NCBI GenBank assembly: GCA_963701095.1
Contig: OY969564.1
Coordinates: 1,952,001-2,016,000 of the forward strand
Length of the DNA: 64,000 nt
Source of the DNA: an uncultured Methanoregulaceae archaeon
GTDB taxonomy: Archaea; Halobacteriota; Methanomicrobia; Methanomicrobiales; Methanospirillaceae
Direction of reading: 5' to 3'
Position 1 is the first letter of the stretch, and every line of letters starts with the position of its first letter. The notes under the pieces were generated by a model. It was not told the origin of the DNA. It searched no databases and worked only from the letters and a program-made list of their open reading frames with translations. A program made the position numbers and the translations under genes. Of the stretch, positions 5,145 to 62,251 are shown piece after piece.

Positions 5145-5216
5145 GCCAAGGTGGCGGAGCGGCCACGCGGTTGACTGCAGATCAACTACACTCCGGTTCA
5201 AATCCGGACCTTGGCT
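5145..5216 (+). tRNA. tRNA-Cys(GCA) #1, in the rRNA operon; G37, U73
   Basis: GCCAAGG/CCTTGGC acceptor stem, anticodon arm GTTGA-CTGCAGA-TCAAC, T-arm TCCGG-TTCAAAT-CCGGA. Confidence 0.97.
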
Positions 5217-44798: not shown

Positions 44799-45307
44799 TG
44801 TGCGGTATCACCGGGACGCCGGGAACAGGCAAATCAACGGTCGCAGACGAACTGTTTCGTCGGGGGCACAGAGTGGTTCACATCACAGATGTAGTGCAAC
44901 CCTACGTGTTGGGAAAAGACCCGGAGCGGGACACGCAGATCATTGACACCGACAAGATGGTCGATGAATTGGTGCCCTTCGATGGTTTTGTCGAGGGCCA
45001 TTTCGCTCACTTACTTCCCTGTGATCGCATAGTGGTGTTGCGTCTTCGTCCTGACGAGCTGGTTGCACGCCTCAAAGCCCGGGGGTATTCATCCAATAAG
45101 ATCGTGGAGAACCGGGATGCTGAAGCGCTTGATGTCTGCCTGATCGAGACGGTAGATCTTTACGATCCTGATTATATTTTTGAACTTGATACGACAGCCA
45201 AAAGCCTGGCTGCTTGTGCTGACACGATCGAGCGGTTTTACCGGGGCGAAATCCCTGCCTCTTTTGGGTCGATCGACTGGTCAGCGTTTGCTGAGGTGTC
45301 GCCTTGA
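44795..45307 (+). CDS. Adenylate kinase (AK6/Fap7 type)
   Basis: ITGTPGTGKS, VEGH, RGY...K..EN. Confidence 0.88.
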   Translation: MMCGITGTPGTGKSTVADELFRRGHRVVHITDVVQPYVLGKDPERDTQIIDTDKMVDELVPFDGFVEGHFAHLLPCDRIVVLRLRPDELVARLKARGYSSNKIVENRDAEALDVCLIETVDLYDPDYIFELDTTAKSLAACADTIERFYRGEIPASFGSIDWSAFAEVSP

Positions 45308-45900
45308 CCCTTGACCAGTTCCGGCCGCATGTCAAGGTCTACTTCGATCCTCTCGTGCGGTTTGCCATCCGGTGCAGGCTTACGCCAAATATTCTTACAA
45401 TCGCGGCGTTTATCGCTTCTGCTGCCGCGGGCCTCCTCTTTTATTTCCGCCTTGAACTCTGGGCGGTACTTGCAGTCGCCATAAATGCGTTTTGCGATGC
45501 AATGGATGGAGCGGTTGCCCGGGAGACCAAAAGCCAGAGCCTAAGGGGAGATTTCCTCGACCATGCGGTAGACCGATACGCTGACATATTCATTATCACC
45601 GGTATCTTCGCAAGCGGCCTCGTAATCTGGCCTATTGGCGTTCTTGCTCTCACCGGGGTCCTGATGTCGTCGTACCTGGGGACGCAGGCACAAGCGGTTG
45701 GCGTGGGGAGGTACTACGGGGGAGTACTGGGCAGGGCCGACCGGCTCGTGCTGATAATGGTGGCCGGGATTGCTACAATCCTTTATCCCCTGACTATATT
45801 CAGTCTGAACTGGCTGGGCTGGCTTCTTCTCCTCTTTGGTGTCTTTGGCCACCTCACAGCATTCCAGCGGTTTGCATATGTGTGGCGGAAGATGGAATAA
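45304..45900 (+). CDS. CDP-alcohol phosphatidyltransferase (archaetidylinositol-phosphate synthase-like)
   Basis: DAMDGAVAR...GDFLDHAVDRYAD motif. Confidence 0.9.
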   Translation: MTLDQFRPHVKVYFDPLVRFAIRCRLTPNILTIAAFIASAAAGLLFYFRLELWAVLAVAINAFCDAMDGAVARETKSQSLRGDFLDHAVDRYADIFIITGIFASGLVIWPIGVLALTGVLMSSYLGTQAQAVGVGRYYGGVLGRADRLVLIMVAGIATILYPLTIFSLNWLGWLLLLFGVFGHLTAFQRFAYVWRKME

Positions 45901-45946
45901 CCAATCCTTTTAGAAGGGTAAAAATGGATAATCCGAGATGCCGACA

Positions 45947-46606
45947 TTATGGTGTTTCAGGTCTCTCTTTTAGATCCCGGATATATTCCAGCGCCGCAAT
46001 TGCATCTTCCCGTTTCTGATCAGCAGGGGTTTCTGTGACAAAAGCGAGGAACCGTTCTTTTGTCGCCGTATCAATTGCATCGCCGGCAACAGTCACGATT
46101 TTCTGGTAGGTACGTTGTGGATAAAAAACTGAACGTGCTGCGTCGAGCAGGATTTGGTGGACATCAGAAGAGATAACTCCGGCAGTCTCCGCATTTTTTA
46201 GTGTGCACCGGATATTGATGAGCGGCTCGGAGAGCGAATATCCTGAGACCGGATCGAAAACAAGTGCTACTTCGTCATCGGATGTGAGTGTGCCGTCTTT
46301 GTACATCTGGTAAATCTTTCCTATACCGGTCATACCCAGTGTATCCATCTCTGCAGCCCGAAGTGCGCCCATGCTCGATGCACCGATTACGGTTACCCCA
46401 TGTTTTACTGCAGCAAGGATCTCTCGATGTGCAACAGCAGCATCCTGATGGAAAACCCCGTCGATAAGACCGATGATCTTTGCACCGTCATGAATTGCCG
46501 CGAGGATATCGCTTCGCTTTGCAGGCAGCCGGTACTCTGCCGCGAGAATTTTTTGCGCAGATGCCAGATCAAGGCTTGGCCCGAGAAAAACGATGATTTT
46601 TTGCAT
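45947..46606 (-). CDS. tfuA: TfuA, partner of YcaO in McrA thioamidation
   Basis: VFLGPSL, IDGVF, GASSMGALRAAE, DDEVA, DQKREDA. Confidence 0.92.
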   Translation of the reverse strand: MQKIIVFLGPSLDLASAQKILAAEYRLPAKRSDILAAIHDGAKIIGLIDGVFHQDAAVAHREILAAVKHGVTVIGASSMGALRAAEMDTLGMTGIGKIYQMYKDGTLTSDDEVALVFDPVSGYSLSEPLINIRCTLKNAETAGVISSDVHQILLDAARSVFYPQRTYQKIVTVAGDAIDTATKERFLAFVTETPADQKREDAIAALEYIRDLKERPETP

Positions 46607-47781
46607 GTCTGAGCCGCTCCCCTCGCCGTTCGGGATCCATTGCATAGACTTCGAGACCTGGAACGATCACCCTGACCACCGGTATCCCTATCTCCTCTCT
46701 GGTCAGGTCAACAACAATCACCCGGTCAAGTCCCTGTTTCCTGAGTGCATCAATCGCAAACCGGATATCCTGAGCGAAGTCATCGCTGTCATATGAACCG
46801 AGATTTTCATAATTGACGGTCCCATTATCCTTAAACCAGTACCCGTTGATCCGTTTGACCCGGTCGTACCCCATCTTTTTCCGGAGGTCTGCCGTTATTG
46901 TATCTTCCCGCGCACCATGGATCTGGGTAAGGCGGCTCTGTGCCACTTCAGTAAGGGCCCTCATGATCGCAATGCGGGCATTGGTATGGGTACCGATCCC
47001 GATCGTAAGCAGCGAGGGATCTTTGAGCAGTACATCATCGGAGACTGCAGCTGATTGTGGGAATGCCGATATCACTGGTAATATCCCGGACAATAACGTC
47101 GACTTTTGCATCAGTAAATTTCTTCTGCATTTCTGCAATCATGGGATCGTCGATCCCGGTCACTGCCGGTCCGGTATCCCGGGTAGCTTCAACAAGCGAC
47201 CAGGCATCCCGTTCAATAACTTCACAGAGTGCATGGAAGATTGCCTCTTCTCTTGTATTTCCTGACGCAAGACCGTTTGTCGAAGTCCGGAAAATTTGGC
47301 GGAAGTTCCGGGGAAGAGGATGGAAGACAGCCTGCGCAGGAACGAAGACCGGGATATCGTTTGCGATATCCCAGCCCTCGACCCAGGGGAGGACATGGCC
47401 GGGTTCGGTTTCTGAAGGGAGGATAAGATCCTTTGGATTGATCGCCGGTGCATTCCCGGCAAGCATTTCATAGGTGTCCAGTTGGATCTTGCGGTCGTGG
47501 ATCTCTGACGAATACCGTTCGATTCCTTCCATGATGCCGGAGATCCGTGATTCCTCGACTGTCGCTCCCTTCCCGTTATAGACCGTAATCGCCCCGTCAT
47601 CAGCGGTCGGCCGGATACAGGAGAAGACGGGAATGCCAATCCGATCGAGATTAGTAATATCTGCAACCCGGGTGATGCCGGCGACCGGGACTTTTGGTTC
47701 TATCCGCTCAAGGGTTTCTGCCAGCGGCACTGCCCGCTGGGTTTCGCGGTTATAGGTCTTTTTGCAGGGAGAAATGTGCAT
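46569..47781 (-). CDS. ycaO: YcaO-family McrA-glycine thioamidation protein (frameshift near 47052)
   Basis: ITNLDRIGIP, NGKG, STNGLASGN..EEA....CEVIERDA, then EVAQSR and VRVIVPGLE in the second frame. Confidence 0.92.
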
Positions 47782-47933
47782 GGGGGTTCACCGGGGTTAC
47801 CGAGCGGATGAGATTGTCCTTTTTAAGAGATTTTACATTATTGTGGTTTATACATGTCCATAGTCCGGGAGCGCGAAGGGAGAATAGTCCAGCCACCCCC
47901 GGATATATTACCTTCCCGTGGCAATGGTGGTAT

Positions 47934-48275
47934 ATGGATTATTCCTACCTTGCCCTGAAATTCCTCATCGGCGGCGGCGTCATTGTAGGTGTAACATTTC
48001 TGGCAGAACAAGTCGACCCGAAATACGGAGGGATTCTCGCCGCAGCCCCGATAACGACAACATTGGCATTTCTTTTCACGTATTCAGATGCCGGGCAGGC
48101 GATAACAAGGCAGCTGGTGATGGGATCCTTCTGGTTTGCCATCCCCACCCTGCTCTTTCTACTGACGCTGTACCTTCTTATGTCACGATATTCCCTCATA
48201 CCCAGTTTTGGCGGGGCATATGGTGTATGGTTTGCAGCAGTCCTCGTAATGAACCGGTTACTTACCGGGATTTGA
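47934..48275 (+). CDS. DUF3147-like membrane protein
   Basis: LKFLIGG, GGILAAAP; four hydrophobic segments. Confidence 0.7.
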   Translation: MDYSYLALKFLIGGGVIVGVTFLAEQVDPKYGGILAAAPITTTLAFLFTYSDAGQAITRQLVMGSFWFAIPTLLFLLTLYLLMSRYSLIPSFGGAYGVWFAAVLVMNRLLTGI

Positions 48276-48321
48276 GCACAAGGGTCTTCATACACAATAA
48301 AATAGTGAATTTTTATGGATT

Positions 48322-49287
48322 TCAGATCTGCCTGAGATTTCCGCGTTGTTTTACAAACCGGTCCCAGTTCCACGGTTCGTCAAGTACGTTTACCCTCACA
48401 TGCTCGATACCGCAGATCCCGAGTGCTTTTCGCTGCACCTGTCCGGAAAGGTGATCGGAGAGGGGGCAGGCTTTACAGGTAAGCACCATGTCGATCTCCA
48501 CGCTGGTGCCCTTTACCCGTATTTCTTTTATTAGTCCGAGGTCGACAATGTCTATGCCCACCTCAGGATCAATTACTTCCTTCAATGCATTCCGAATCTC
48601 GTTCTCGCAGACGATCTCCTGGCGGGCCGCAGGGGATATTGGGTTTGGCTGTGCCTGCTCGAACGTGCGGAGTCTCTCTTCAAGCTGGTTCTGCCGGTCC
48701 AGCAGCCGGCTGACCACGCGGAGCATGGGATCAGGCATAACTTCTTCGATTGTCTCGTCCGGCGATCCATGTTCCGGACCGGCGATCCTGCCCGGGACAC
48801 CGACAACCGTTGCGCCTGACGGGACGGACCTGACTACGACTGATCCGGCACCGACTTTCGCCCCCCTGCCTATACGGATGGGACCGAGGACGATAGATCC
48901 GGATCCAAGGATCACATCACCCTCTATAGTTGGGTGACGTTTCACGTTCTCGAGCGCTGTACCCCCAAGCACGACACCCATGTAGATGAGGACATCATTT
49001 CCAATCTCGGCTGTCTCTCCGATAACAACTCCCATACCATGATCGATAACCACCCGGCGGCCAATCACTGCACCGGGATGGATCTCAATCCCGGTAAGGA
49101 ACCTGCCTATATGGGAGACGAACCGGGCCCAGAATTTGAAGTTATGGATCCAGAGCCAGTGAGCCCTCCGGTGGATCCAGAGCGCATGAAGCCCTGGATA
49201 ACAGAAAAGGACTTCAGAGGTGGAGCGGGCAGCAGGGTCCTTGGAAAATATTGCCTGGATGTCTTCCCGGAGGCGGTCAAAAACCAT
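48322..49287 (-). CDS. cysE: Serine O-acetyltransferase fused to a C-terminal DUF59 (SufT/MIP18) domain
   Basis: DPAARS, YPGLHA, IEIHPGA, IDHGMG, KRHPT; then [13 protein letters not shown]...LTCKACP. Confidence 0.93.
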
Positions 49288-49298
49288 GGTAGTCTCAC

Positions 49299-50231
49299 TT
49301 ATTCCACAAACAGATCCGGGATACTTAAGTACCGTTCCCCGGTATCTGGCAGGATAACCACAATAAGCTTACCCTTGTTTTCCGGGCGTGATGCCACTTC
49401 AAGAGCGGCATAGGTCGCTGCGCCACTGGAGATCCCGGCAAGAATACCCTCCTCTTTAGCCAGTCTTCGTGTCGTTTCAAAGGCGTCCTCATTCTTAACA
49501 CGGATAATCTCGTCCACGAGCTCGCGTTTGAGTACTGCGGGGACGAAACCAGCACCGATACCTTGGATGCGGTGTGGGCCGGGAAACCCGCCGGAGAGCA
49601 CCGGTGAAGCATCAGGTTCGACGGCGATTGCGCGGAATGAGGGCTTTTTCTTCTTGATCACATCTGCAATACCGGTAATTGTTCCTCCGGTTCCCACGCC
49701 GGCCACGAGGATATCGACTTTTCCGTCGGTATCGCGCCAGATCTCCTCGGCAGTAGTCTTCCGGTGAATTGCCGGGTTTGCCAGGTTGTTAAACTGCTGG
49801 GGGATGTAAAAGTACTTCGGGTTCTCTGCTGCCATTTTCTCGGCTCTTGAGACAGCTCCCTTCATACCCTCCGCACCGGGTGTAAGAACCAGCTCTGCAC
49901 CGAATGCTTTTGCCAGTCTCCGCCTCTCGACACTCATGGTCTCCGGCATCACCAGCGTGAGTTTGTATCCCCGTGCAGCACTTACGAATGCAAGGGCGAT
50001 ACCGGTATTACCGCTTGTTGGTTCGAGGATGATCGTATCTTTTTTGATCAATCCTTGCTTTTCGGCCTCATCGAGCATCGCAACCCCGATACGGTCCTTG
50101 ACACTGCTCAGAGGGTTGAACGATTCAAGCTTTACAAAAACCGTTGCGCCAGAACCCTTACTCAGACGGTTCAGCCGTACAAGCGGCGTGTTGCCAATCG
50201 TTGCTGTAATATTTTCGTAGATCTTTGCCAT
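49299..50231 (-). CDS. cysK: Cysteine synthase A (O-acetylserine sulfhydrylase)
   Basis: [33 protein letters not shown]. Confidence 0.96.
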
Positions 50232-50286
50232 TCCGTTTCCCTTCCTGACTCTGGAATCTCCCTAGGATCTGGTGAGGTTCCGGAAG

Positions 50287-50300
50287 TTCACAATTGTTAA
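50287..50300. promoter_or_regulatory. Putative operator TTCACAATTGTTAA at the cysK promoter
   Basis: Near-palindrome between a minus-strand TATA-like box (~50315-50322) and the cysK start; recurs at 52912 and 54701. Confidence 0.7.
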
Positions 50301-50989
50301 TTGTCCGGAGCCAGTTATTATACCTTGTTTTCCAGCAAAAACTGCATTCCTGATCAGGATTTATGAATAATACTCTTACGAAGATTGACATTTAGCGGCA
50401 AAATATGACGCAAAATCAGGATATAATACATCTCCCGCCTCATATTACGTGTTCACACCTCTGAACAGGAAGACAGTCATGAACACACACCGCGCGAATA
50501 CCGCTGGACTCTCATCAGGCCCGGATGCACCCCGGTCGTTGCCCGTGTCTTTTCCGGCATTGTACCGGTAAGACCTGTGGAACAGTTCACTCGTATCAGG
50601 GGCTCAGGGCAGTATTGTTGTCCCTTGGAGCTCGCTAGAACAGGTTCACCAGTGACTGCATTCCTCATAATCCGCGGAATACCTGCAGTCCTTGGTATGG
50701 GTCCGTGAGAATCAATCCTGATTTCATGTCCTCGACCTCAACCAAATAGGACCATATAGAAGCACCTCGGCTGTCAAGGTCGATATCACCAGCCGTAATA
50801 AAGCCTCATGCACCACAAACACACAAACTCCGATACCACACCCGGGAGATTTGTTAGTATTTCCAGGTGAAACGTAATTTTTTCCACCTATGTTTAGACT
50901 CAATCTAGATCTATTGCAGAAAAAGTGAATATCACGAAGAAGAGTAATCCAACCTGAATATATTCGGGAAACGAGTCCATTGAAAAAGG

Positions 50990-51062
50990 GCCGGTGTGGC
51001 AGAGCGGTTAATGCCTTCGCCTGCAAAGCGAATGCGTGGGGGTTCGACTCCCTCCGCCGGCG
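50990..51062 (+). tRNA. tRNA-Cys(GCA) #3, atypical (A37, apparent G73), directly upstream of cysS
   Basis: GCCGGTG/CGCCGGC acceptor, D-stem GCA/TGC, anticodon arm TTCGC-CTGCAAA-GCGAA, T-arm GGGGG-TTCGACT-CCCTC. Confidence 0.9.
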
Positions 51063-51082
51063 TAAAAATGAGGATCACTGCC

Positions 51083-52343
51083 ATGGAACTGTACAGTACA
51101 TTATCAAGAACTGTTGAACCGTTTGCGACACTTCATCCGGACAGGGTGACGCTCTTTGTTTGCGGTCCGACAGTATACGATTATTCACATCTTGGTCATG
51201 CCCGGACCTATGTTGTCTTTGACGTCCTTACAAAATATCTTAGGTTGACGGGTAAAGAGGTGTTCTATCTCCAGAATATAACAGACGTCGATGACAAAAT
51301 CATCTACCGTGCAAAGGAAGAAGGGCTGTCCCAGAGCCTTCTGGCTAGGAAGTTTGAGACCGAGTACCTCCGAGACATGCGTTCCCTTGGGATTGATGCT
51401 GTTAGTTATTATGCCCGGGCCACAACTCACATCCCCGAGATAATCAACCAGGTGAAACGGTTGGTCGATCGGAATGTAGCATACGTCACCGAAACCGGAG
51501 TCTACTTCAATCTCGACTCGTTTAGACACAACGGGGAACTTTCAGGACAGGAACGGGCAAAGCGTGTCAGCCGCGTTAACGATTCGACAAAGCACAATCC
51601 CTTGGATTTTGCGCTCTGGAAACTGGGTGAATTCGGGGAATATACTTGGGACTCCCCATGGGGGCGGGGACGACCAGGCTGGCATATCGAGGACACAGTG
51701 TATCTCAGAGAAGTACTTCGGGCAGCAGTACGATATTCATGGGGGGGGATTAGATCTGATATTCCCTCATCATGAGGCAGAGATCGCGCAGATGGAGTCT
51801 CTGGAAGGAAAGCACCCGATGGTGAGATACTGGCTGCACACGGGTTTCCTCACGGTAAAAGGTGAGAAAATGTCCAAATCCCTCGGGAACTTTATCACGA
51901 TCAGGAACGCCCTCAAAACATGGAATAAGGATATACTCCGGTATTACTTTTTGCTCTCCCACTACCGGTCCCCACTTCAGGCAACTGACGAAGGTTTTGC
52001 TAACGCCGCCCGAGGTCTCGATCATATACGGGCTGTTGCAACTAAAGATAAAGGAGCGGACGCGAAGGGAAGGAGAGCCTTTATCGACGCTATGGAGTCT
52101 GATCTCAATACACCTATGGCCCTTGCTGCAATCCAGGCACTTGCGGTGAGTAGAGATCTTGAGGCGTTGCGCGAGTACGGAGAGATCCTCGGGATCAATT
52201 TTCTCCGCGAGACCAGTGCCCCCCTCAGTGTTCTTCAGGATATCCGGGCAGAACTACGGGCGAAAAAACAGTTTGGTATAGCAGATTTGATCCGTCAACG
52301 AATGGTAGCTGCGGGAATACCAATTACTGATGGACCACTCTGA
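51083..52343 (+). CDS. cysS: Cysteinyl-tRNA synthetase (one extra base at 51698-51701)
   Basis: CGPTVY, HLGH, DFALWK, GRPGWHIEDT | DIHGGG.DLIFPHHEAE, KMSKS, AD.IR anticodon-binding motif. Confidence 0.93.
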
Positions 52344-52594
52344 TTGGGTTCCCCCTTTCATCAGCTTTTTGGAATCCGGAACTGCGAAATGCTCCCGAGA
52401 TTACACATATACTTAAACGCTCAATGGTGTTGCCAAAGTTCACATACGGGCGGGGAATTAAATTCATTCCTTTACCGGGAACGTGAAAGATTCAGTGAGG
52501 AGGAAAATAAAAAAATCGCGGGGGAAACAGTGGGTAACAGGTTCACCACTGCCTTAGGAAATAGAGGAACGTGCATGTAGAGGCATAGGACACA

Positions 52595-52848
52595 TCATGC
52601 AGTAACCGCCTCTTCCAGCGGCTTGGTGTTCAGGCCGTACAGACTCTGCCTTGCATCGATGAAATAATAATGTTCAATCAAGAACTTTTCATCTTTGAGC
52701 CTGTTCAATGCATACCGCACAGTTCGGGACGGCAGGGCGGTCTCACGGATGAGATCCTTCTGCGTCAGCTGACCATTCGTTTCCAATACTTTATACACGA
52801 GCTTTGCCGATGGCGGCAGGTGCCTGATCCGTGCGAATGATCCTCCAT
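52595..52848 (-). CDS. Winged-HTH transcription regulator (apparent 1-nt deletion near the start)
   Basis: LPPSAKLVYKVL...LTQKDL..ET.LP.RTVRYAL..L...DARQSLY; ATG at 52848 is one base out of frame. Confidence 0.8.
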
Positions 52849-52911
52849 TCGCGCTTACATTATTTTCGACAAAAACGATCCCTCATAGTGGATCACCATA
52901 GAACGTAAGAG

Positions 52912-52925
52912 TTCACAATTGTTAA
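52912..52925. promoter_or_regulatory. Putative operator TTCACAATTGTTAA upstream of the regulator
   Basis: 16-mer AGTTCACAATTGTTAA identical to the cysK site; overlaps a minus-strand BRE/TATA-like CGAAAGACTTAACAA. Confidence 0.7.
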
Positions 52926-53465
52926 GTCTTTCGTTTCAGGACCCATTCGTTCGATGCATTCAAACTTCATTTTCATGAAAGACACATATCAAAAAATAAA
53001 GGTATATCTGCTTTTTAAAGCAGGAAAAAGCCATATTCTCCCCCGAATAATCTCACCGGGAGAATATCCGATCTTTATCCTTTTCTGTGACACCGATCCC
53101 AGTGTCTCAAAATAGAGTACCAGATCCGGATCTTACTGATAAACCATGGCGTAGAAATCAGGGTATTGATTCCCATGCGTTCAATTTCCGGGAGAAGATC
53201 TTCCCATTCACAAAAAACAAGACGAGATTTTATCACGCATGAAGAGCGTGAAAGCCCATAACCGGAAAGAGAGTGAAGTTTCCCAGCCATATTGCTTGGA
53301 GAACCTTCCGGCGCTCATAACAGATTCCGACAAGGCAATTTTATGTTGATAATGATAGTACGGTGTTTGTATCTTCAGTTTAATGAGATCCCGATGATAA
53401 TGCTGATCTGAGAAACATTTTCTGGTTTTTCCAGAAATTTCCCATTAAAGTGGAGTAGATCAATT

Positions 53466-54329
53466 ATGACATCCCAAGAAAAGGATGAACACATCCTGGA
53501 AGCTGTTGGACGGTCCCGGATTGTCATCCGGAACGGAACCATTGTGGAAATTGGAGAAGCAAAGATTACGGAATGCCCGCTGGCCAAACGTTTTGCGTAT
53601 CCTGTCCCCCGGATCACACAAGAAGCAGTAAAAGCTAACATCGAGCACCGGATGAAAGCATTCGGCATGTGCACATCCCGGAGAGACGTACTTGATATGC
53701 GCGAATTCGTAGGGTTCGGTGCCACAGAGTTGCTTGGTTTCGCATCACATGTGGGTTTGATCGATGCGGCTGTACTCGCGTGTGACGGTGCCGGGACAGT
53801 CATTGTGAGAAAACCCGCCCTTATCCAGGGAGTCGGCGGAAGGATGTCCGGGCTTATCTCTACGAGCCCTATCAAAGAGGTTATTCAACGCATCGAAGAA
53901 AGTGGCGGTATTGTTGTGGATAAAACCCACGCAGCACTCGATCAGTTTAGCGGTGTAAAACGAGCTTACCAAGAAGGCTTCAAAAAAGTGGCTGTTACTG
54001 TAGCAAGACCTGAAGTCGCAGTGCGTATTCACCAGGAATACCCTAATACCATCATCTTTGGTGTCCATGTCACAGGTCTCACCGAAGAGGAGACAGAAGC
54101 AATGGTGGGAGTTGCGGATCTTATGACTGCATGTGCCTCTAAAACCGTGCGACAGATAGCAGGTGCTAAGGCACTTCTTCAAGCAGGAGTTTCCGTTCCT
54201 ATATTTGCCCTAACAAAGCGAGGAAAAGAAATCATTATTGAAAAGATTCGTCAAACGGAAGAACAGGTTCTGATAAAACCTACAAAGCTTCCGGCTCTTG
54301 GCGAAAAACAGCCCGACCCGCTGGTCTGA
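53466..54329 (+). CDS. Methanogenesis marker protein 8 (DUF2099)
   Basis: DEHILEAVG, CPL, FGMCT, ACDGAGT, GGRMSGL, GVH.TG, ACASK. Confidence 0.85.
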   Translation: MTSQEKDEHILEAVGRSRIVIRNGTIVEIGEAKITECPLAKRFAYPVPRITQEAVKANIEHRMKAFGMCTSRRDVLDMREFVGFGATELLGFASHVGLIDAAVLACDGAGTVIVRKPALIQGVGGRMSGLISTSPIKEVIQRIEESGGIVVDKTHAALDQFSGVKRAYQEGFKKVAVTVARPEVAVRIHQEYPNTIIFGVHVTGLTEEETEAMVGVADLMTACASKTVRQIAGAKALLQAGVSVPIFALTKRGKEIIIEKIRQTEEQVLIKPTKLPALGEKQPDPLV

Positions 54330-54699
54330 AATAATGAGATATTTTTTTTTAATTTGATGTTTTTAGTTTTTGAGATCCTCTATTTTTGCAAATTCAGACA
54401 TGCCAGTGATGAGGAATTGTCTCGAAAATAAAATACCGGTGACTTATCTGCATGATTGTGTTGAGGTCCTGTTGATGCTAAGAACCGAGAAAGTGACGGA
54501 TCACTTTAAGCCGTCTGTTGAAGAAGGATCCGGCCTTTGTTTTATTACTCCAGATAATAAATCATACGCGCCCAATATATCTTAACTGTATTCAAAATCC
54601 GGCCTCAAAAACACAGTTTTAGGTCTGTAATTCAGATCAGGAAAAAGTCGCCGAATACAGAACTTATAAATAATCACGATTGTTATCTATTATGGTCGT

Positions 54700-54715
54700 A
54701 TTCACAATTGTGAAT
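54700..54715. promoter_or_regulatory. Perfect palindrome ATTCACAATTGTGAAT upstream of tRNA-Cys #2/pscS
   Basis: Downstream of TTATAAATA (54664-54672); weaker copy ATCACGATTGTTAT at ~54673-54686. Confidence 0.75.
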
Positions 54716-54723
54716 GTGGCTAT

Positions 54724-54795
54724 GCCAAGGTGGCGGAGTGGCTACGCGGCTGACTGCAGATCAGCTACAACCCGGTTCGAATCCGGGCCTTGGCT
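54724..54795 (+). tRNA. tRNA-Cys(GCA) #2 (G37, U73), directly upstream of pscS
   Basis: GCCAAGG/CCTTGGC, anticodon arm GCTGA-CTGCAGA-TCAGC, T-arm CCCGG-TTCGAAT-CCGGG. Confidence 0.97.
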
Positions 54796-54808
54796 TCGAG
54801 GTGTTCCC

Positions 54809-57570
<2,762 letters not shown>

Positions 57571-57573
57571 AGT

Positions 57574-59055
57574 ATGAATATGCTCCGTGGCTCTCTAGGC
57601 ATTGTCAGGACAGAACACGCAGACCTCTCCGGTTCACTCACCCTTGAAAGCGGAGAAGTGCTCTCCAACCTGACAATAGCCTATGAAACCTACGGCAAGC
57701 TCAACAAAGAAAAAAGCAACGCTATCCTTATCTGCCATGCTTTATCCGGGGACGCCCATATAGCCGGGTTTCACGAAGGGGACGACAAGCCCGGCTGGTG
57801 GGACACTGTTGTCGGGCCCGGTAAGGCATTTGATACGGATCGCTATTTTGTGATCTGCAGCAATGTTCTGGGAGGATGTAAAGGCTCAACCGGCCCTTCT
57901 TCAGTCAATACGGAGACCGGCAAACCTTTTGGTACAAGGTTCCCGGTCATTACCATCAGGGACATGGTCAACGCCCAGAAACTTCTTCTTGACTATCTCG
58001 GCATTACCGAATTGTATGCTGTAGTCGGGGGATCAATGGGAGGCATGCAGGCTCTCCAGTGGACGGTATCGTATCCGGACATGATAAAAAAGGCAATCGT
58101 TATTGCCGCGACCGGATACTCGACTCCCCAGCAGATTGCCTTTAACGAGGTTGGCAGGAAAGCCATTATCTCCGACCCTGACTGGAATAACGGGAACTAT
58201 TACGGCAAACGAGTTCCCACACACGGTCTAGCGTTGGCACGGATGGTGGGCCATATCACGTACCTCTCTGATGAATCAATGCATGCAAAGTTCGGGAGGG
58301 CACTCCAGGGAAAGGACCATGTCGGGTTTGATTTCTCGACTGAGTTTGCCGTAGAAAGTTACCTCCACCACCAGGGGGATACATTCACAAAACGGTTCGA
58401 TGCAAATTCGTATCTGTATATTACAAAAGCGATCGATTACTTCGACCTTACAAAGGATGGCTCGCTCGCGACCGGGCTCTCTGCCGTGAAAGCGTCTTTT
58501 TTCATTCTTTCAGTCTCGTCGGACTGGCTCTATCCTCCCTATCAGTCGCAGGAAATTGTGACAGCACTTACCGCTAATGAACGCGAGGTGCATTACTGCG
58601 AGATCCGTTCGAACTACGGTCATGATGCGTTCCTGCTCGAATCAGGTCAGCTCAATTACCTGATTACCCGGTTCCTGTCGCATACCGTTGTCGGGGACGT
58701 GATGACCCGGGAGGTCGAATGCATCGAAGAGGGTACCACAATCGCGGTAACTGCCCGGAGAATGATCAAGTGCAGTGTCAACCACCTGCCGGTTCTTTCC
58801 GCTACCGGCCAGCTCGTAGGAATCGTTACCTCGTGGGATATCGCAAAGGCAGTGGCGTCCAATTTTCTCTGGCTCGACGAGATCATGAGCCGGGATGTGG
58901 TTACGACAACCAAGAAGGAGCCCGTTGAGGAGGCGGCTAGGAAAATGGAGGACCATTCAATCTCTGCCCTGCCCGTTGTCGACAACGACCGGCACGTTAT
59001 AGGCCTTATCACGAGCGATGCGATCAGTACTCTCGTCGGGAGACAAACACCGTGA
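57574..59055 (+). CDS. metX: Homoserine O-acyltransferase with C-terminal tandem CBS domains
   Basis: CHALSGD, GGSMGG, FDANSY, YGHDAFL followed by two CBS repeats. Confidence 0.93.
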
Positions 59056-59096
59056 AAATCCCCACTAATCAGGAAGAACCAGGGACAAACGTGAAC

Positions 59097-60209
59097 ATGG
59101 CAAAAAAGTGGTTGGTCCGGTACTCGGAGATATTCTTAAAATCAGATCCGGTACGCCGGCAATGGGAACGGGTCCTGATAAACAACATCCGGCAGCTTAT
59201 ACCCGATTTGAAGATCAAAAGTGAACGCGGCAGAATATGGATCACCGGGAATCTCGATCCCGAAAAACTTAGGCATGTATTTGGGATCGTTTCATTCTCA
59301 GAAGTCGAACATGTACCCCATGATTTACCGCTGGAAACAGCACTTATTGAATATTGCAGGACACACGGTCTTCCCGGCGCGAAGACATTTGCACTGCGCA
59401 TCAAAAGGGTAGGAAAACACAGTTTTTCCTCGAACGATAAGGCGATCGAACTTGGCGATGTAGTCCGGAAAGCATTCCCTCACCTGAAGGTGAACCTTGC
59501 TGTCCCAGACGTTGAAATCCATATTGAAATCCGGCAGGATGAATGTTATCTCTACGATAAAGTGATAAAAGGGTCCGGCGGTCTTCCTCTTGGGGTAGAG
59601 GGAACGCTTGTTGCACTTGTCTCGGGAGGCATCGATTCCCCGGTTGCGGCATGGATGATGATGAAACGGGGCTGCAGGATCGTGCCGATCTATGTGGCGC
59701 TCGATACCTTCCTTGACGAAACCGTCTTGACCCGGGCCGAACGGGTAGTTGAAGTGTTACGGAAGTACCAGCCCGACATCCGGCTCCGGGTGATACATGA
59801 CACCTACCTAGCGGCAGCAAAAAAGGAGCTGATCAGAAACCGGCAGGAGAAGTATACCTGCATCTTTTGCAAACGCCGGATGTACCGGATTGCGCAGGCT
59901 GTTGCACAAGAAATAGGGGCAAAAGGTATCGTGAACGGTGAGTCGCTTGGACAGGTAGCAAGCCAGACCCTCGACAATCTGGTGGTCCTCTCAGATGCCG
60001 CAGAGATCCCGGTTTATCGTCCCCTCATCGGGTTTGACAAGGCAGATGCGATAGCAATCGCCCGGGATATCGGAACCTACGAAGAGTCAACAAGTAAAGC
60101 TACCGGCTGCAAGGCTGTGCCAAAGGGACCATCCACGAAAGCTCACCTGAAGGAGATCCTTGAGATGGAAAAGAATATGGAAGCGACGAAAATACCACTA
60201 CCTGTGTGA
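59097..60209 (+). CDS. thiI: tRNA 4-thiouridine synthase ThiI (no rhodanese domain)
   Basis: THUMP region, SGGIDSPVA, CIFCKR, GESLGQVASQT, C-terminal GC. Confidence 0.93.
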   Translation: MAKKWLVRYSEIFLKSDPVRRQWERVLINNIRQLIPDLKIKSERGRIWITGNLDPEKLRHVFGIVSFSEVEHVPHDLPLETALIEYCRTHGLPGAKTFALRIKRVGKHSFSSNDKAIELGDVVRKAFPHLKVNLAVPDVEIHIEIRQDECYLYDKVIKGSGGLPLGVEGTLVALVSGGIDSPVAAWMMMKRGCRIVPIYVALDTFLDETVLTRAERVVEVLRKYQPDIRLRVIHDTYLAAAKKELIRNRQEKYTCIFCKRRMYRIAQAVAQEIGAKGIVNGESLGQVASQTLDNLVVLSDAAEIPVYRPLIGFDKADAIAIARDIGTYEESTSKATGCKAVPKGPSTKAHLKEILEMEKNMEATKIPLPV

Positions 60210-60274
60210 CAAGTATTCGGGATCACACAGACTCTCCTTAAATCAAGGGTCCCCCTCTCGCCTTTCCCCGGCGC

Positions 60275-61027
60275 ATGAATAAATCCATATCTTTTAACAA
60301 CACCCAGAGTACCATTATGCCATCTCCCATGGTCGGGCGGAAATTTGGTGTCGGTGCAATCACCGCACCGGACCCCGCAAACGTGCAGGGCACAAGAGTG
60401 GTAGGGATCTCTGGATCGAGCCGGCAGGAACCGGGGATGTCCAAGTCAGAACGCCTGCTCATCGAAGCTCTCGACCGGTGCACTGCACTCGGTTGCGAAA
60501 CGAAGTTTATCCGGCTCAAAGACCTTAAAATATATGATTGTGAAGGAAATTATTCCGAGAACCCGGAATACTGTACCTATCCCTGCCAGTCTTCGATGAA
60601 ATACGTGGACGACGAAATGGATAAAGTATATGCAGCGATTCTGGACTGTGATGTCCTTTTCCTTGCCACGCCCATCAGATGGAATAATCACTCAGCACTT
60701 GTCCAGAAATTTATCGAACGGATGAACTGCATCGAGAACCAGTACTCGTGGTTTGGCAACCGGATGATCAAAAATAAAGTCGTGGCGCTCATCATCATTG
60801 GCCATGTAGACGGTATGCAACACGTAGCAGGCAACCTCCTGAATTTTTTTGCATGGCTGGGTTTTCACAGCCCTGAAGTTTCTATCGCCTCTTGGGTAGG
60901 AGAGAATAATGAGGATACGACACGGGATTGGGAGCTGATAGAGAAAAACCAGTACACTCAGGAAGATCTCACGGATATGGTCCATAACTCGTTACGCCTT
61001 GCGTGCAGCCTGAAACGGCAGATCTGA
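60275..61027 (+). CDS. Flavodoxin / iron-sulfur flavoprotein-like protein
   Basis: GISGSSR, CEGNYS...CTYPC, ATPIRW; start uncertain. Confidence 0.8.
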   Translation: MNKSISFNNTQSTIMPSPMVGRKFGVGAITAPDPANVQGTRVVGISGSSRQEPGMSKSERLLIEALDRCTALGCETKFIRLKDLKIYDCEGNYSENPEYCTYPCQSSMKYVDDEMDKVYAAILDCDVLFLATPIRWNNHSALVQKFIERMNCIENQYSWFGNRMIKNKVVALIIIGHVDGMQHVAGNLLNFFAWLGFHSPEVSIASWVGENNEDTTRDWELIEKNQYTQEDLTDMVHNSLRLACSLKRQI

Positions 61028-61108
61028 CTGAAGAAGATATACTCCCGCTGTTACCGGATCATCGTTCCTATGAAGGATAATCAGGATCGTATATTGAAAA
61101 AAACGTTA

Positions 61109-61513
61109 TCAGAGGAGTTTTGAACCGGCCGTCGCTCCAGGTTTACATTCAAAAACATCGGTAATCTTTACAATGAGAAGCGACCGTGCAGGAAGCGCTG
61201 GGTTTTTCTTGTTAATCTTATCCTTCATCTCGTCGTATTCCTTGCCGCTCGTTTTGATGGTGACATGCCCTTTAATCTGGAAACACCCTTTGATTTCCGG
61301 GCCCCAGACATAGAGTGCGATTTTCGGGTTTGCCTTGAGATTATCAAGGGTTTTATTCATGAAATTGTCCGTAATCCAGATCGTATCATCGCTGATAAGC
61401 TCGACTATCCCGATCGGGATAACATTTGGTGTGCCATCTTTGGCTGCGGTCGCTACCGGGAAGATTTTCATTTTCAGAAAGGCTTCTTTCATGTCAGCGG
61501 TTAATTTTGCCAT
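61109..61513 (-). CDS. Pyridoxamine 5'-phosphate oxidase-like protein (paralog of 29486-29884)
   Basis: ATAAKDGTPNV, KTLDNLKANP, FQIKG. Confidence 0.85.
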   Translation of the reverse strand: MAKLTADMKEAFLKMKIFPVATAAKDGTPNVIPIGIVELISDDTIWITDNFMNKTLDNLKANPKIALYVWGPEIKGCFQIKGHVTIKTSGKEYDEMKDKINKKNPALPARSLLIVKITDVFECKPGATAGSKLL

Positions 61514-61627
61514 AATGAATGCACCGATCTCTTCCTCTGCGCCCCACTCGTATAAACCTTAGTATCAAGAAAGCAAGCCGGTCACCCGAAACCGTTTTAC
61601 GCTCCTCCCGGCAAGTGACTAGATTAC

Positions 61628-62251
61628 GTGAAGATCATGACCCGCCAGTTCCAGACCTATCATGACGCCGTTGCCTTTCACGGACATTCCTGTCCCGGCC
61701 TCGCGCTTGGTTATCGCGCAGCCAGACATGCTCTCTCTGTATTGCATGCCGAACGATCCGAGGACGAGGATTTGGTTGCGGTTGTTGAAAACGATGCCTG
61801 TGGGATTGATGCGGTCCAGGCAATTGCCGGATGTTCCGTTGGCAAAGGAAACCTGATTCTCAAGGATCTGGGCAAGCATGCATACACGTTTATCAACCGC
61901 AGGACCGGCTCGGCAATTCGTATTGTCCAGCGTTCTGAACCCCTGCTCGAACGTATTGATCCGGTGGCATCTGAGCTGCGCGGAAAAGTTGTGGCCGGGA
62001 AAGCGACGCCAACCGAGATACAGGAGTATGAAGAGCGCCAGACAGCAGTCATTGACAAGATCCTTACGGTTCCGATTGGTGAGCTATTTATTGAAAAAGA
62101 GGCGCGTTCTGATACCCCTGAAAAGGCACGGATTTCACGATCGGTTCCGTGTGCCATCTGTGGTGAGATGGTTGCTGAACACCGTGCCAGACTTAAAAAA
62201 GGTAAAACAGTCTGCATCCCATGCGCCGGCGAATATAACCGAAACCGATAA
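61628..62251 (+). CDS. FmdE-family protein with C-terminal zinc finger
   Basis: FHGHSCPGLALG, ENDACGIDA, GC.VGKGNL, C..CGE...C..C. Confidence 0.9.
   Translation: MKIMTRQFQTYHDAVAFHGHSCPGLALGYRAARHALSVLHAERSEDEDLVAVVENDACGIDAVQAIAGCSVGKGNLILKDLGKHAYTFINRRTGSAIRIVQRSEPLLERIDPVASELRGKVVAGKATPTEIQEYEERQTAVIDKILTVPIGELFIEKEARSDTPEKARISRSVPCAICGEMVAEHRARLKKGKTVCIPCAGEYNRNR

Follow-up and report, generated by a model that had tools for sequence, protein, structure and literature searches.

The locus

The window analyzed here is a 64,000-nucleotide stretch (positions 1952001-2016000) of the genome of an uncultured Methanoregulaceae archaeon (assembly GCA_963701095.1, contig OY969564.1), a single contig of 2,625,686 bases with 48% G+C that is 86% complete by marker genes and is called G000 below. 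Within this window, a 14-base palindrome recurs in front of cysteine and sulfur genes and in front of a gene for a small winged helix-turn-helix (HTH) protein, TF-A, whose reading frame has no fitting start codon. An earlier note on this DNA had proposed that the palindrome is the operator of a cysteine/sulfur regulon and that the HTH protein is its autoregulated repressor. The explanation of the whole that we favor, and regard as probable, combines an operator-controlled regulon with a +1 ribosomal frameshift in TF-A that would read out the supply of Cys-tRNA(Cys).

A pattern scan places the palindrome, TTCACAATTGTKAA, at the three intergenic positions that had been reported for it (50287-50300, 52912-52925 and 54701-54714), and Pfam and NCBIfam searches bear out the names given to the surrounding genes: cysK, cysE, the HTH gene, SepCysS, metY, metX and thiI. 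DUF2099 (methanogenesis marker 8) is also among the confirmed gene identities. The features are listed below, with the palindrome copies, which carry no strand, entered as predicted operators.

48322-49287, minus strand: cysE, fused to a C-terminal FeS_assembly_P domain (Pfam)
49299-50231, minus strand: cysK (PALP; Pfam)
50287-50300: predicted operator copy, cysK-cysE promoter; sequence TTCACAATTGTTAA, which read towards cysK is TTAACAATTGTGAA
52595-52882, minus strand: winged-HTH frame (TF-A), +1 relative to the ATG; HTH_24 match
52860-52886, minus strand: short zero-frame open reading frame (ORF), ATG...TAA, MRDRFCRK; ATG at 52886-52884
52869-52874, minus strand: putative +1 shift site TTT_T, where the A site would be occupied by the Cys codon TGT
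52889-52897, minus strand: Shine-Dalgarno (SD) sequence GGTGATCCA, complementary over 9 nt to the 16S rRNA 3' end and 2 nt upstream of the ATG
52912-52925: predicted operator copy, TF-A promoter; sequence TTCACAATTGTTAA
54663-54672, plus strand: TATA-like CTTATAAATA, tRNA-Cys operon promoter, assigned by eye
54673-54686: weak predicted operator copy (11.5 bits), 28 nt (center to center) upstream of the strong copy
54701-54714: strong predicted operator copy, a perfect palindrome, 9 nt upstream of tRNA-Cys
54724-54795, plus strand: tRNA-Cys(GCA), first gene of the operon (tRNA prediction)
54809-60209, plus strand: SepCysS (second copy, with an N-terminal extension), metY (Cys_Met_Meta_PP), metX with CBS domains, and thiI (Pfam/NCBIfam)

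A predicted operator and its regulon

The palindrome, TTCACAATTGTGAA, of which one half may be TTAAC, is enriched in this genome and not simply common. With up to two mismatches, the window holds six strand-matches against 1.17 expected, a number that none of 100 shuffles attains, and the whole genome holds 10 such sites, four of them with at most one mismatch and two of them exact. The 210 palindromes that share its half-site composition average 0.41 sites with at most one mismatch, and four of them attain four sites; two exact copies are unique to the operator palindrome. All four of the genomic sites with at most one mismatch lie in promoter regions of cysteine or sulfur genes. Three are those of the earlier note, and the fourth is a perfect copy outside the window (genome position 2121908) between two divergent operons: on one side a gene for a 113-residue HTH protein (TF-B) followed by a LarE-like PP-loop sulfur transferase gene (TIGR00268) and fdhD, on the other a cysteine desulfurase gene (iscS) followed by iscU. 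A weight matrix trained on 40 sites gives these four sites 27-29 bits, compared to 12 bits for the next best place in the genome. The weaker copy that had been noticed beside a TATA box (54673-54686) is recovered by the same matrix at rank six genome-wide, and it is retained in three other genomes of the order, G017, G033 and G039. Two other palindromes of the same composition are also over-represented in G000, AATATCCGGATATT (seven sites with at most one mismatch) and CAATATCGATATTG (five); these may be other operators or restriction-related sites.

We compared G000 with other genomes of its order, Methanomicrobiales, in a sample of 61. TF-A orthologues (59-79% identity, E ≤1e-22) occur in eight of these, including G000, and represent five of six families; weaker matches (~45-50% identity) belong to a paralogue. 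Each of the seven other TF-A genomes has 5-10 sites with at most one mismatch (6-9 in five of them, 5 and 10 in the other two), while the reversed pattern, used as a control, gives none in these seven and at most one in others (0-1 across 30 genomes scanned). In five genomes annotated by ORF calling and Pfam (167 ORFs), the sites are grouped in islands of 13-35 kb, with three clusters in G017. Downstream of the sites lie tRNA-Cys followed by SepCysS and metY (and metX); cysK-cysE or metX-cysK-cysE; nifS/iscS followed by fdhD or iscU; a LarE-like gene; thiF-thiS; thiS-moaE; pdxS/thiN; a radical SAM gene with DUF1890, DUF1894 and nadA, or nadA by itself; and TF-A. The islands also hold ttuA.

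The site is conserved ahead of orthologous genes. It precedes cysK, SepCysS/tRNA-Cys and nifS in the five annotated genomes, TF-B in 18 of 22 cases (up to two mismatches) and TF-A in 81 of 82 distinct orthologous loci, where it stands 25-28 nt before the ATG in 80 and 22 nt before it in one more. All eight TF-A loci of the order sample have the motif just upstream, read TTAACAATTGTGAA towards the gene, and the copy at the cysK promoter of G000 recurs, oriented alike, at those of G017, G033 and G039. We therefore consider that the operator and its regulon are very probably real and conserved. The predicted regulon is one of cysteine supply and of sulfur mobilization from cysteine into cofactors, tRNA and iron-sulfur clusters. 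The proposal of a cysteine/sulfur regulon that includes tRNA-Cys genes is upheld by this gene content; its restriction to de novo Cys/Met synthesis was too narrow, given the sulfur mobilization genes.

The sulfur islands of two genomes, G028 and G033, have additional genes (L145 5469-9360; L147 12609-16424; L147 686-8683): NifH/NifD/NifK-like genes, a ThrRS-ED gene, genes of a corrinoid methyltransferase system (RACo, B12-binding, URO-D type, DUF1847) and one for an ABC transporter of the NMT1 type. They may serve to scavenge organic sulfur.

Several of the target operons start with a tRNA-Cys gene of their own. In the window plus the fetched islands, ARAGORN detects 13 genes for tRNA-Cys, nine of which are preceded by a site with up to two mismatches that stops 6-9 nt short of their mature 5' end; a tenth has a variant with three mismatches. 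The operator-headed tRNA-Cys genes lead operons for SepCysS-metY, for thiF-thiS and for a radical SAM gene. In each genome there is also a tRNA-Cys gene that lacks a site and has an ordinary promoter, as at 5145-5216 in the window, a third copy that looks constitutive. The tRNA-Cys ahead of cysS (50990-51062, plus strand) is quite unlike the other two of the window in sequence. Neither the genome-wide pattern scan nor the weight matrix finds an operator ahead of it, in line with the suggestion that the CysRS route is controlled separately. An Rfam scan of 45000-62000 gave two tRNAs and nothing else.

The SepCysS of the window is a second copy. The other, at 63% identity and lacking the N-terminal extension, is encoded at genome positions 761160-762329 and lies outside the regulon, with no operator-like site among the top genome matches. 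Because several of the operons have a tRNA-Cys of their own as first gene, 6-9 nt past the operator, tRNA-Cys would be co-regulated with the second SepCysS. tRNA-Cys is the scaffold of tRNA-dependent cysteine synthesis, and the apparent use of tRNA-Cys genes as regulated first genes of sulfur operons fits that role. The clade VII SepCysS gene clusters of Mukai et al. (2017; PMC5424206), as described in the passages that matched our search, agree with the second SepCysS copy of the window and with ThrRS-ED in the G028 island. Those passages treat gene association only: the term 'regulat' has no occurrence, and no operator, regulator or frameshift appears in them.

The position of the sites relative to promoter elements, for which TATA boxes were assigned by eye, bears on the direction of control. 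In the tRNA-Cys promoter the order is CTTATAAATA, the weak copy, a predicted start ~25 nt past the TATA, the strong copy and then the tRNA; this arrangement recurs in the iscS/TF-B region and at the SepCysS promoters of G017, G033 and G039, where the copies are 27-28 nt apart center to center. The cysK promoter has a TATA-like TATAATAA 14 nt upstream of the site on the gene strand, which puts the predicted cysK start inside the operator. Ahead of the TF-A site is an invariant CGAAA(T/G)AC that resembles a transcription factor B recognition element plus the start of a weak TATA. The left half of the operator overlaps this putative TATA, and TF-A loci with G+C-rich upstream DNA have no other A+T-rich stretch there. 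These predicted positions agree with the earlier claim that the palindrome lies over or just downstream of TATA. Archaeal regulators bound at or downstream of TATA block TBP/TFB or RNA polymerase. Since the operator lies between TATA and gene, over the predicted start, or over TATA, its binder should repress, as far as site position can tell. A sigma-70 and terminator scan of the region, a method unsuited to archaea, gave nothing useful.

That no protein binds the palindrome, which would then be a chance repeat or belong to a duplicated promoter-tRNA-Cys module, seems very improbable. A copy at a fixed distance from nine of 13 tRNA-Cys genes does look as if a module had been copied as a unit. 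However, copies also precede cysK, TF-A, TF-B/iscS, nifS, nadA and radical SAM genes that have no tRNA, the flanks at these tRNA-less sites are unlike, and the palindrome is kept across families of the order where its surroundings are not. We thus return to the palindrome as the operator, in all likelihood, of a conserved cysteine-synthesis and sulfur-mobilization regulon in Methanomicrobiales, with protein binding as a prediction.

A conserved frame break in TF-A

We collected 91 TF-A loci (eight from the order sample, three from genome contigs and 80 from metagenome contigs), of which 90 include the 5' region and 82 are distinct. The 82 form 18 clusters at 90% identity of the 62-residue core, and the minimum pairwise identity is 56%. 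The earlier note had called for a frame-corrected protein, but the frame break needs no correction: it is conserved, with the same +1 relation in all 82 distinct loci.

The ATG is preceded by GGTGATCC(A), a 9-nt complement of the 3' end of the G000 16S rRNA. The spacer between this SD sequence and the ATG varies by 1-2 nt across loci, and the stretch is therefore a ribosome-binding site and not coding sequence. In every locus the SD and ATG open a short frame that reads M-R/S-D-R-F/L-C... and is 6-13 codons long in 80 loci and 29-30 in two. Its codon 5 is TTT in 61, CTT in 20 and CGT in one (L126, which has GTG in the HTH frame). Codon 6 always encodes Cys (TGT 81, TGC 1), as does codon 7 in 45 of the loci. 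In the locus with TGC at codon 6 (L009), the overlapping HTH-frame codon changes from Val to Ala and the Cys is retained.

From the ATG to a conserved His codon of the HTH the distance is 52, 55, 58, 61 or 64 nt. Because the linker changes length in threes only, the HTH is always in the +1 frame (82/82). The first HTH-frame codon is GGG in 63 loci, GGT in one and GTG in 18, and 57 loci have no ATG, GTG or TTG from the HTH-frame stop to the conserved HLPPS motif. In G000, where the HTH frame is open from 52882 down to 52598, the first such codon is a GTG at 52798 (codon 29), inside the first helix. As expected when no start codon fits, public gene calls for TF-A have arbitrary starts and range from 63 to 95 residues.

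The HTH domain is under protein-level (purifying) selection, as seen in the 64 loci without GTG, where entropy is 0.31, 0.15 and 1.03 by codon position and there are no stops. Three-base periodicity in the HTH frame starts at +19. Before this point, a 21-nt block (-3 to +18) that ends in YTT-TGY is nearly invariant across the 82 loci: mean entropy is 0.24 for third positions of the HTH frame and 0.17 for those of the short frame, compared to 1.03 at third positions of the HTH domain. The block is this constant although G000 makes free use of synonymous codons, with TTC for 47% of Phe, TGC for 55% of Cys, GAC for 36% of Asp, and GTA plus GTG for 41% of Val. The TF-A protein is cysteine-free in all 82 loci, and TF-B needs five cysteines.

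We can dismiss an assembly error or a decaying gene as the source of the frame break with near certainty. The 86% completeness of G000 could be held in its favor, as could cysS, which has a 1-nt insertion that is absent from G017. The same frame relation, however, is found 82 times in 82 loci from isolates, metagenome-assembled genomes and metagenomes of many projects, and the HTH is under purifying selection.

Several further observations concern frames and related sequences. One extra base near 51701 breaks the cysS gene of the window (51083-52343, plus strand) into two ORFs that overlap, whereas the cysS of G017, a member of the same genus, is intact with 444 codons; the cysS break may be an assembly error or gene decay and, unlike the TF-A break, is not conserved. 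A YcaO match (47035-47781, minus strand) spans only profile positions 1-195 of 325 and is followed by an overlapping ORF (46569-47138, minus strand) and then TfuA (45947-46645), so that this region possibly holds another frame break. Three further exact copies of the 12-nt block GATCGTTTTTGY (GATCGTYTTTGY) are present at genome positions 2573218, 1481668 and 848159 (minus strand). A distant homologue in a Bathyarchaeia metagenome-assembled genome (L045, 2900-3010) retains CTATGAGGGAT...GTTTGC, and its ATG-opened short frame has Cys as codon 6. Its HTH frame, however, has an in-frame ATG as well, and the palindrome upstream, TTCTTATAAGAA, is not the same.

Two candidate binders

The HTH frame of TF-A matches Pfam HTH_24 with 26.9 bits (cut-off 21.9). 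TF-A is not assigned to the MarR family (MarR_2 19.7 bits vs 27): it is a single-domain protein of 93 residues with no dimerization helix pair. Its predicted structure (mean pLDDT 71) is a plain winged helix whose best Protein Data Bank (PDB) neighbors are MarR-family chains; the fold search against the PDB gave no match at E ≤0.001, and the sequence profile match to MarR chains is weak (E 0.004). TF-A thus shares helices and wing with single-domain winged-HTH regulators (HTH_24/MarR/TrmB-like) but differs from MarR proteins in the missing dimerization helices. Public records name it generically, as a winged helix-turn-helix regulator, TFIIE alpha or hypothetical protein.

TF-B (113 residues) has a weak XRE-type HTH_3 match (20.5 bits vs a 23-bit cut-off), and its nearest Atlas clusters carry HTH_3. 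Its model (pLDDT 77) is helical with an HTH and low confidence at the Cys-bearing ends; compared to the PDB, it gave no match at E ≤0.001, and PDB sequence searches returned weak HigA-like matches. Cys residues C6, C88, C91 and C102 are invariant in 22 of 22 orthologues. Of the 61 genomes, 33 have a TF-B orthologue (E ≤1e-28), compared to eight for TF-A. Across 22 TF-B promoters the palindrome usually stands 40-47 nt ahead of the ATG, with eight perfect copies, five with one mismatch, five with two and four diverged. TF-B is therefore probably autoregulated by the same operator, and may be its primary binder.

Sites with at most one mismatch per genome are distributed as follows.

Genomes with TF-A (all also with TF-B): 4, 7, 5, 7, 6, 9, 7, 10
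Genomes with TF-B only, two or more sites: G013 7, G038 5, G014 4, G001 4, G019 3, G044 3, G009 2
Genomes with TF-B only, one site or none: G005 1, G020 1, G010 1, G012 1, G004 0, G042 0, G054 0
Genomes with neither: G011 0, G051 0, G046 0, G003 1

A paralogous operon (G000:C1:1402560-1403109), present in most genomes of the order, encodes a winged-HTH protein followed by a Cys-bearing XRE-like HTH protein behind TGTTAAC-N3-GTTAACA. The TF-A paralogue here has a normal ATG directly behind TGTTAAC-N3-GTTAACA and a recognition helix almost as in TF-A. Since the TF-B paralogue follows in the same operon, the TF-A and TF-B families are functionally linked, and the half-site argument does not separate them. 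Recognition helices are near-identical in the paralogous system for both families and so do not tell which of the two reads the DNA, and the ratio of TTAAC-type to perfect sites shows no clear difference between genomes with and without TF-A.

The comparative data make it probable that TF-B binds the palindrome and put TF-A just short of an even chance of doing so; the two are not mutually exclusive. The claim that the winged-HTH protein is an autoregulated repressor accordingly stands in part: the operator does precede its own gene in nearly all loci, but TF-B shares the operator and is more widespread. A serious possibility, which we rate somewhat below even, is that TF-B is the sole binder, an iron-sulfur- or sulfur-sensing repressor like IscR or SufR, and that TF-A is one further regulated gene with a different job, which would be compatible with the frameshift proposed below. 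Besides the wider distribution of TF-B, its invariant cysteines and the palindrome in most of its promoters, this explanation is favored by the presence of TF-B in all 18 site-bearing genomes that were checked for it, ten of which lack TF-A, and by the 1-7 sites in genomes without TF-A (G014, G009, G013, G038, G019, G044, G005, G020, G010, G012 and G001); in G014 and G009, where profile searches find no TF-A, the sites are at iscS-iscU, cysK and SepCysS. In genus g10, moreover, the TF-B recognition helix and the site at its own promoter have changed together, the latter to TTAACAATTGTTAA, in four of four genomes. However, the TF-B-only genomes of g10 have just 1-3 sites whereas its TF-A genome has nine, the HTH_3 match of TF-B is under the Pfam cut-off, and the winged-HTH paralogue lies behind related half-sites with a near-identical helix, although with the TF-B paralogue in the same operon.

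IscR and SufR are bacterial iron-sulfur-sensing repressors. TF-B resembles them in being a small HTH protein with four invariant Cys residues and a palindrome at its own gene, divergent to iscS-iscU. It differs in belonging neither to Rrf2 nor to COG2345, with its weak HTH_3 match and no solved relative. By these sequence features TF-B qualifies as a protein that works like an iron-sulfur-sensing repressor, and cluster sensing is predicted.

A proposed +1 frameshift and its alternatives

We think it likely that the TF-A frame break is a programmed +1 ribosomal frameshift. Ribosomes would initiate at the SD and AUG and read M-R/S-D-R-F/L. While the Cys codon (UGU or UGC) occupies the A site, the peptidyl-tRNA for Phe or Leu, paired with UUU or CUU, would re-pair one base forward on UUU. 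A shifted ribosome would continue in the HTH frame, and unshifted ones would terminate after 6-13 codons in 80 of the 82 loci. Slow decoding of Cys would raise TF-A output, and TF-A synthesis would then be a read-out of Cys-tRNA(Cys) supply; being cysteine-free, the protein could be made when Cys-tRNA is short. It is the layout and its conservation that are observed, and from these we infer the frameshift, its site, its Cys-tRNA dependence and the sign of regulation. Our support for a response of the frameshift to Cys-tRNA supply, which draws on analogy, is tentative and leans slightly towards doubt. One coherent circuit would have holo-TF-B repress under good sulfur or Fe-S status, with TF-A, whose transcription would require derepression and whose translation would require a shortage of Cys-tRNA, modulating the state in one direction or the other.

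A number of points weigh against the combination of operator regulon and Cys-tRNA-dependent frameshift. The support for both frameshifting and operator binding is all comparative, and the 82 loci are related (18 clusters), so that the counts overstate their independence. TF-B is at least as good a candidate binder as TF-A. The sign is paradoxical: the sites are placed as for repression, but a hungry Cys codon would increase TF-A under Cys-tRNA scarcity, and with TF-A as the repressor this would not amount to simple homeostasis. The few variants at block positions 7, 10 and 13 leave the HTH-frame amino acids unchanged, which would also fit HTH-frame translation from further upstream. The slip may instead occur at AGG_G (codon 2). 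Position 6 is only G or T, of which G permits this slip and T creates the GTG start of 18 loci; the restriction of position 13 to T or C and of position 16 to T, on the other hand, is accounted for by the YUU_U model and left unexplained by the AGG_G model. The block GGATC (+6 to +10) can pair with the SD GATCC in a 5-bp hairpin (52877-52897, minus strand) with the AUG in its loop. Among 30 sequences the variable pair of this hairpin is CG in 21, AU in three, CU in five and UG in one, the folding term is -4.5 kcal/mol, and three retain the closing pair via changes on both sides, so part of the block conservation may serve initiation control and not shifting. The RNA support, finally, consists of low-depth metatranscriptome contigs of relatives (one run, 5% of words; 80% likeness) over TF-A, DUF2099, the tRNA and SepCysS, and such contigs cannot show transcript starts, ends or rare variants.

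Two other routes to the protein have to be compared with a frameshift. TF-A might start in its own frame, either at a non-canonical codon (AUC, or GGG/GUG) or at an internal GTG that would give 66-67 residues, and the short ATG frame would then be an upstream ORF with Cys codons. We consider this unlikely. The GTG that is the first HTH-frame codon in 18 of 82 loci, the synonymous positions 7, 10 and 13, a sister subfamily that begins M-V-F-V-V in frame and the many public gene calls of 63-66 residues would all suit such a start. However, in 57 of the loci there is no ATG, GTG or TTG before HLPPS, and one locus, L034, lacks any such codon within 90 nt of the start of its match. Upstream of the internal GTG, the stretch is open, changes length in threes and holds the conserved I-G/R-H-L-P-P-S; the SD is spaced for the ATG and not for a codon 7 nt beyond it; the AUC is never ATG, GTG or TTG in the 82 loci; and HTH-frame third positions 13 (T or C only) and 16 (T only) are constrained beyond the needs of the protein. 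Slippage of RNA polymerase in a T run, which would correct the frame in the mRNA, is much less probable still. A five-T run is found at the site in 61 of the loci, but 20 have only CTTT, and the metatranscriptome contig of one relative reads the run unchanged, although contigs drop rare variants. A programmed ribosomal shift at YUU_U accordingly remains the explanation that we prefer for the frame break.

Relation to known recoding and attenuation systems

The TF-A layout is like that of RF2 (prfB). In both, a short zero-frame ORF is opened by AUG and the functional protein lies in the +1 frame with no start of its own, and in both a slowly decoded A-site codon would decide between stop and shift. 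RF2 has an internal SD-like stimulator. At TF-A loci, G(G/T)GATC ends 2 nt before YTT in 81 of 82 cases and is a candidate stimulator; its GGG form is a poor anti-SD match and may pair with the initiation SD instead. In the passages of PMC5009743 that concern RF2, the conserved site of shifting is CUU_U, with a minority of species having UUU_U, and frameshifting increases as RF2 declines. The same two sites are found at TF-A loci (UUU_U in 61 of 82 and CUU_U in 20, or 81 in total). The A-site codon of TF-A differs in being a sense codon for Cys (UGU 81, UGC 1) instead of a UGA read by its own product. Further differences are that the shift would fall at codons 5-6 and not 26, the product is a DNA-binding protein and the host is an archaeon. 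TF-A is thus like RF2 but not a member of that class.

The same source, where it deals with +1 shifts, describes a slow A-site codon due to limiting aminoacyl-tRNA as generally important, with Ty1 shifting at CUU_AGG_C with 40% efficiency (PMC5009743). In such hungry-codon shifts (Ty1 and E. coli under starvation), these passages have a P-site Leu or Phe tRNA slip on YUU_N while the A site awaits a scarce aminoacyl-tRNA. In Ty1, a rare tRNA fixes the ratio, whereas the hungry codon of TF-A belongs to an amino acid that the surrounding regulon would supply. Because this is the amino acid whose tRNA-linked synthesis the regulon provides, the arrangement suggests a sensor. Leader-peptide attenuation (trpL, pheL) is a further likeness, in that a very short ORF is rich in the regulated amino acid: there is one Cys in 82 of 82 loci and a tandem Cys in 45. 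The regulated frame of TF-A, however, overlaps the leader in +1 instead of lying downstream. Folding of 30 sequences predicted no alternative terminator or antiterminator hairpins after the short ORF, only the 5-bp SD hairpin, and the terminator scan placed no terminator-like site there.

Implications

Term searches of the literature, with subscription journals outside their coverage, returned nothing on the operator or on either regulator, and the core of the motif appeared only in unrelated papers; the operator thus seems, as had been suspected, not to have been described. In the parts of a 2021 review (PMC8211752) that bear on this, a single -1 frameshift is demonstrated in cellular archaea, and +1 shifts are mentioned only for a haloarchaeal virus and as a suggestion for magnesium chelatase. 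A +1 site across five families would therefore be the first of its kind in archaea.

The gene callers that give TF-A 63-95 residues show the relevance for annotation, and the regulon map supplies testable targets. To our knowledge, the regulation of cysteine and sulfur trafficking in methanogens is largely unknown, and we know of no T-box or attenuation systems in this lineage. The regulon around TF-A includes extra tRNA-Cys genes, the second SepCysS, cysK/E and cysteine desulfurases. In the full and still speculative form of our proposal, a Cys codon replaces the RF2 stop, and the ribosome would measure Cys-tRNA(Cys) and set the amount of a cysteine-free DNA-binding protein that would probably act on the very regulon that makes Cys-tRNA(Cys). 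If true, the system would sense an amino acid in a way for which no domain has a described counterpart. A frameshift that responds to Cys-tRNA would then represent a new mode of amino acid sensing, in which RF2-like recoding serves a different signal in a domain where recoding of that type has not been shown.

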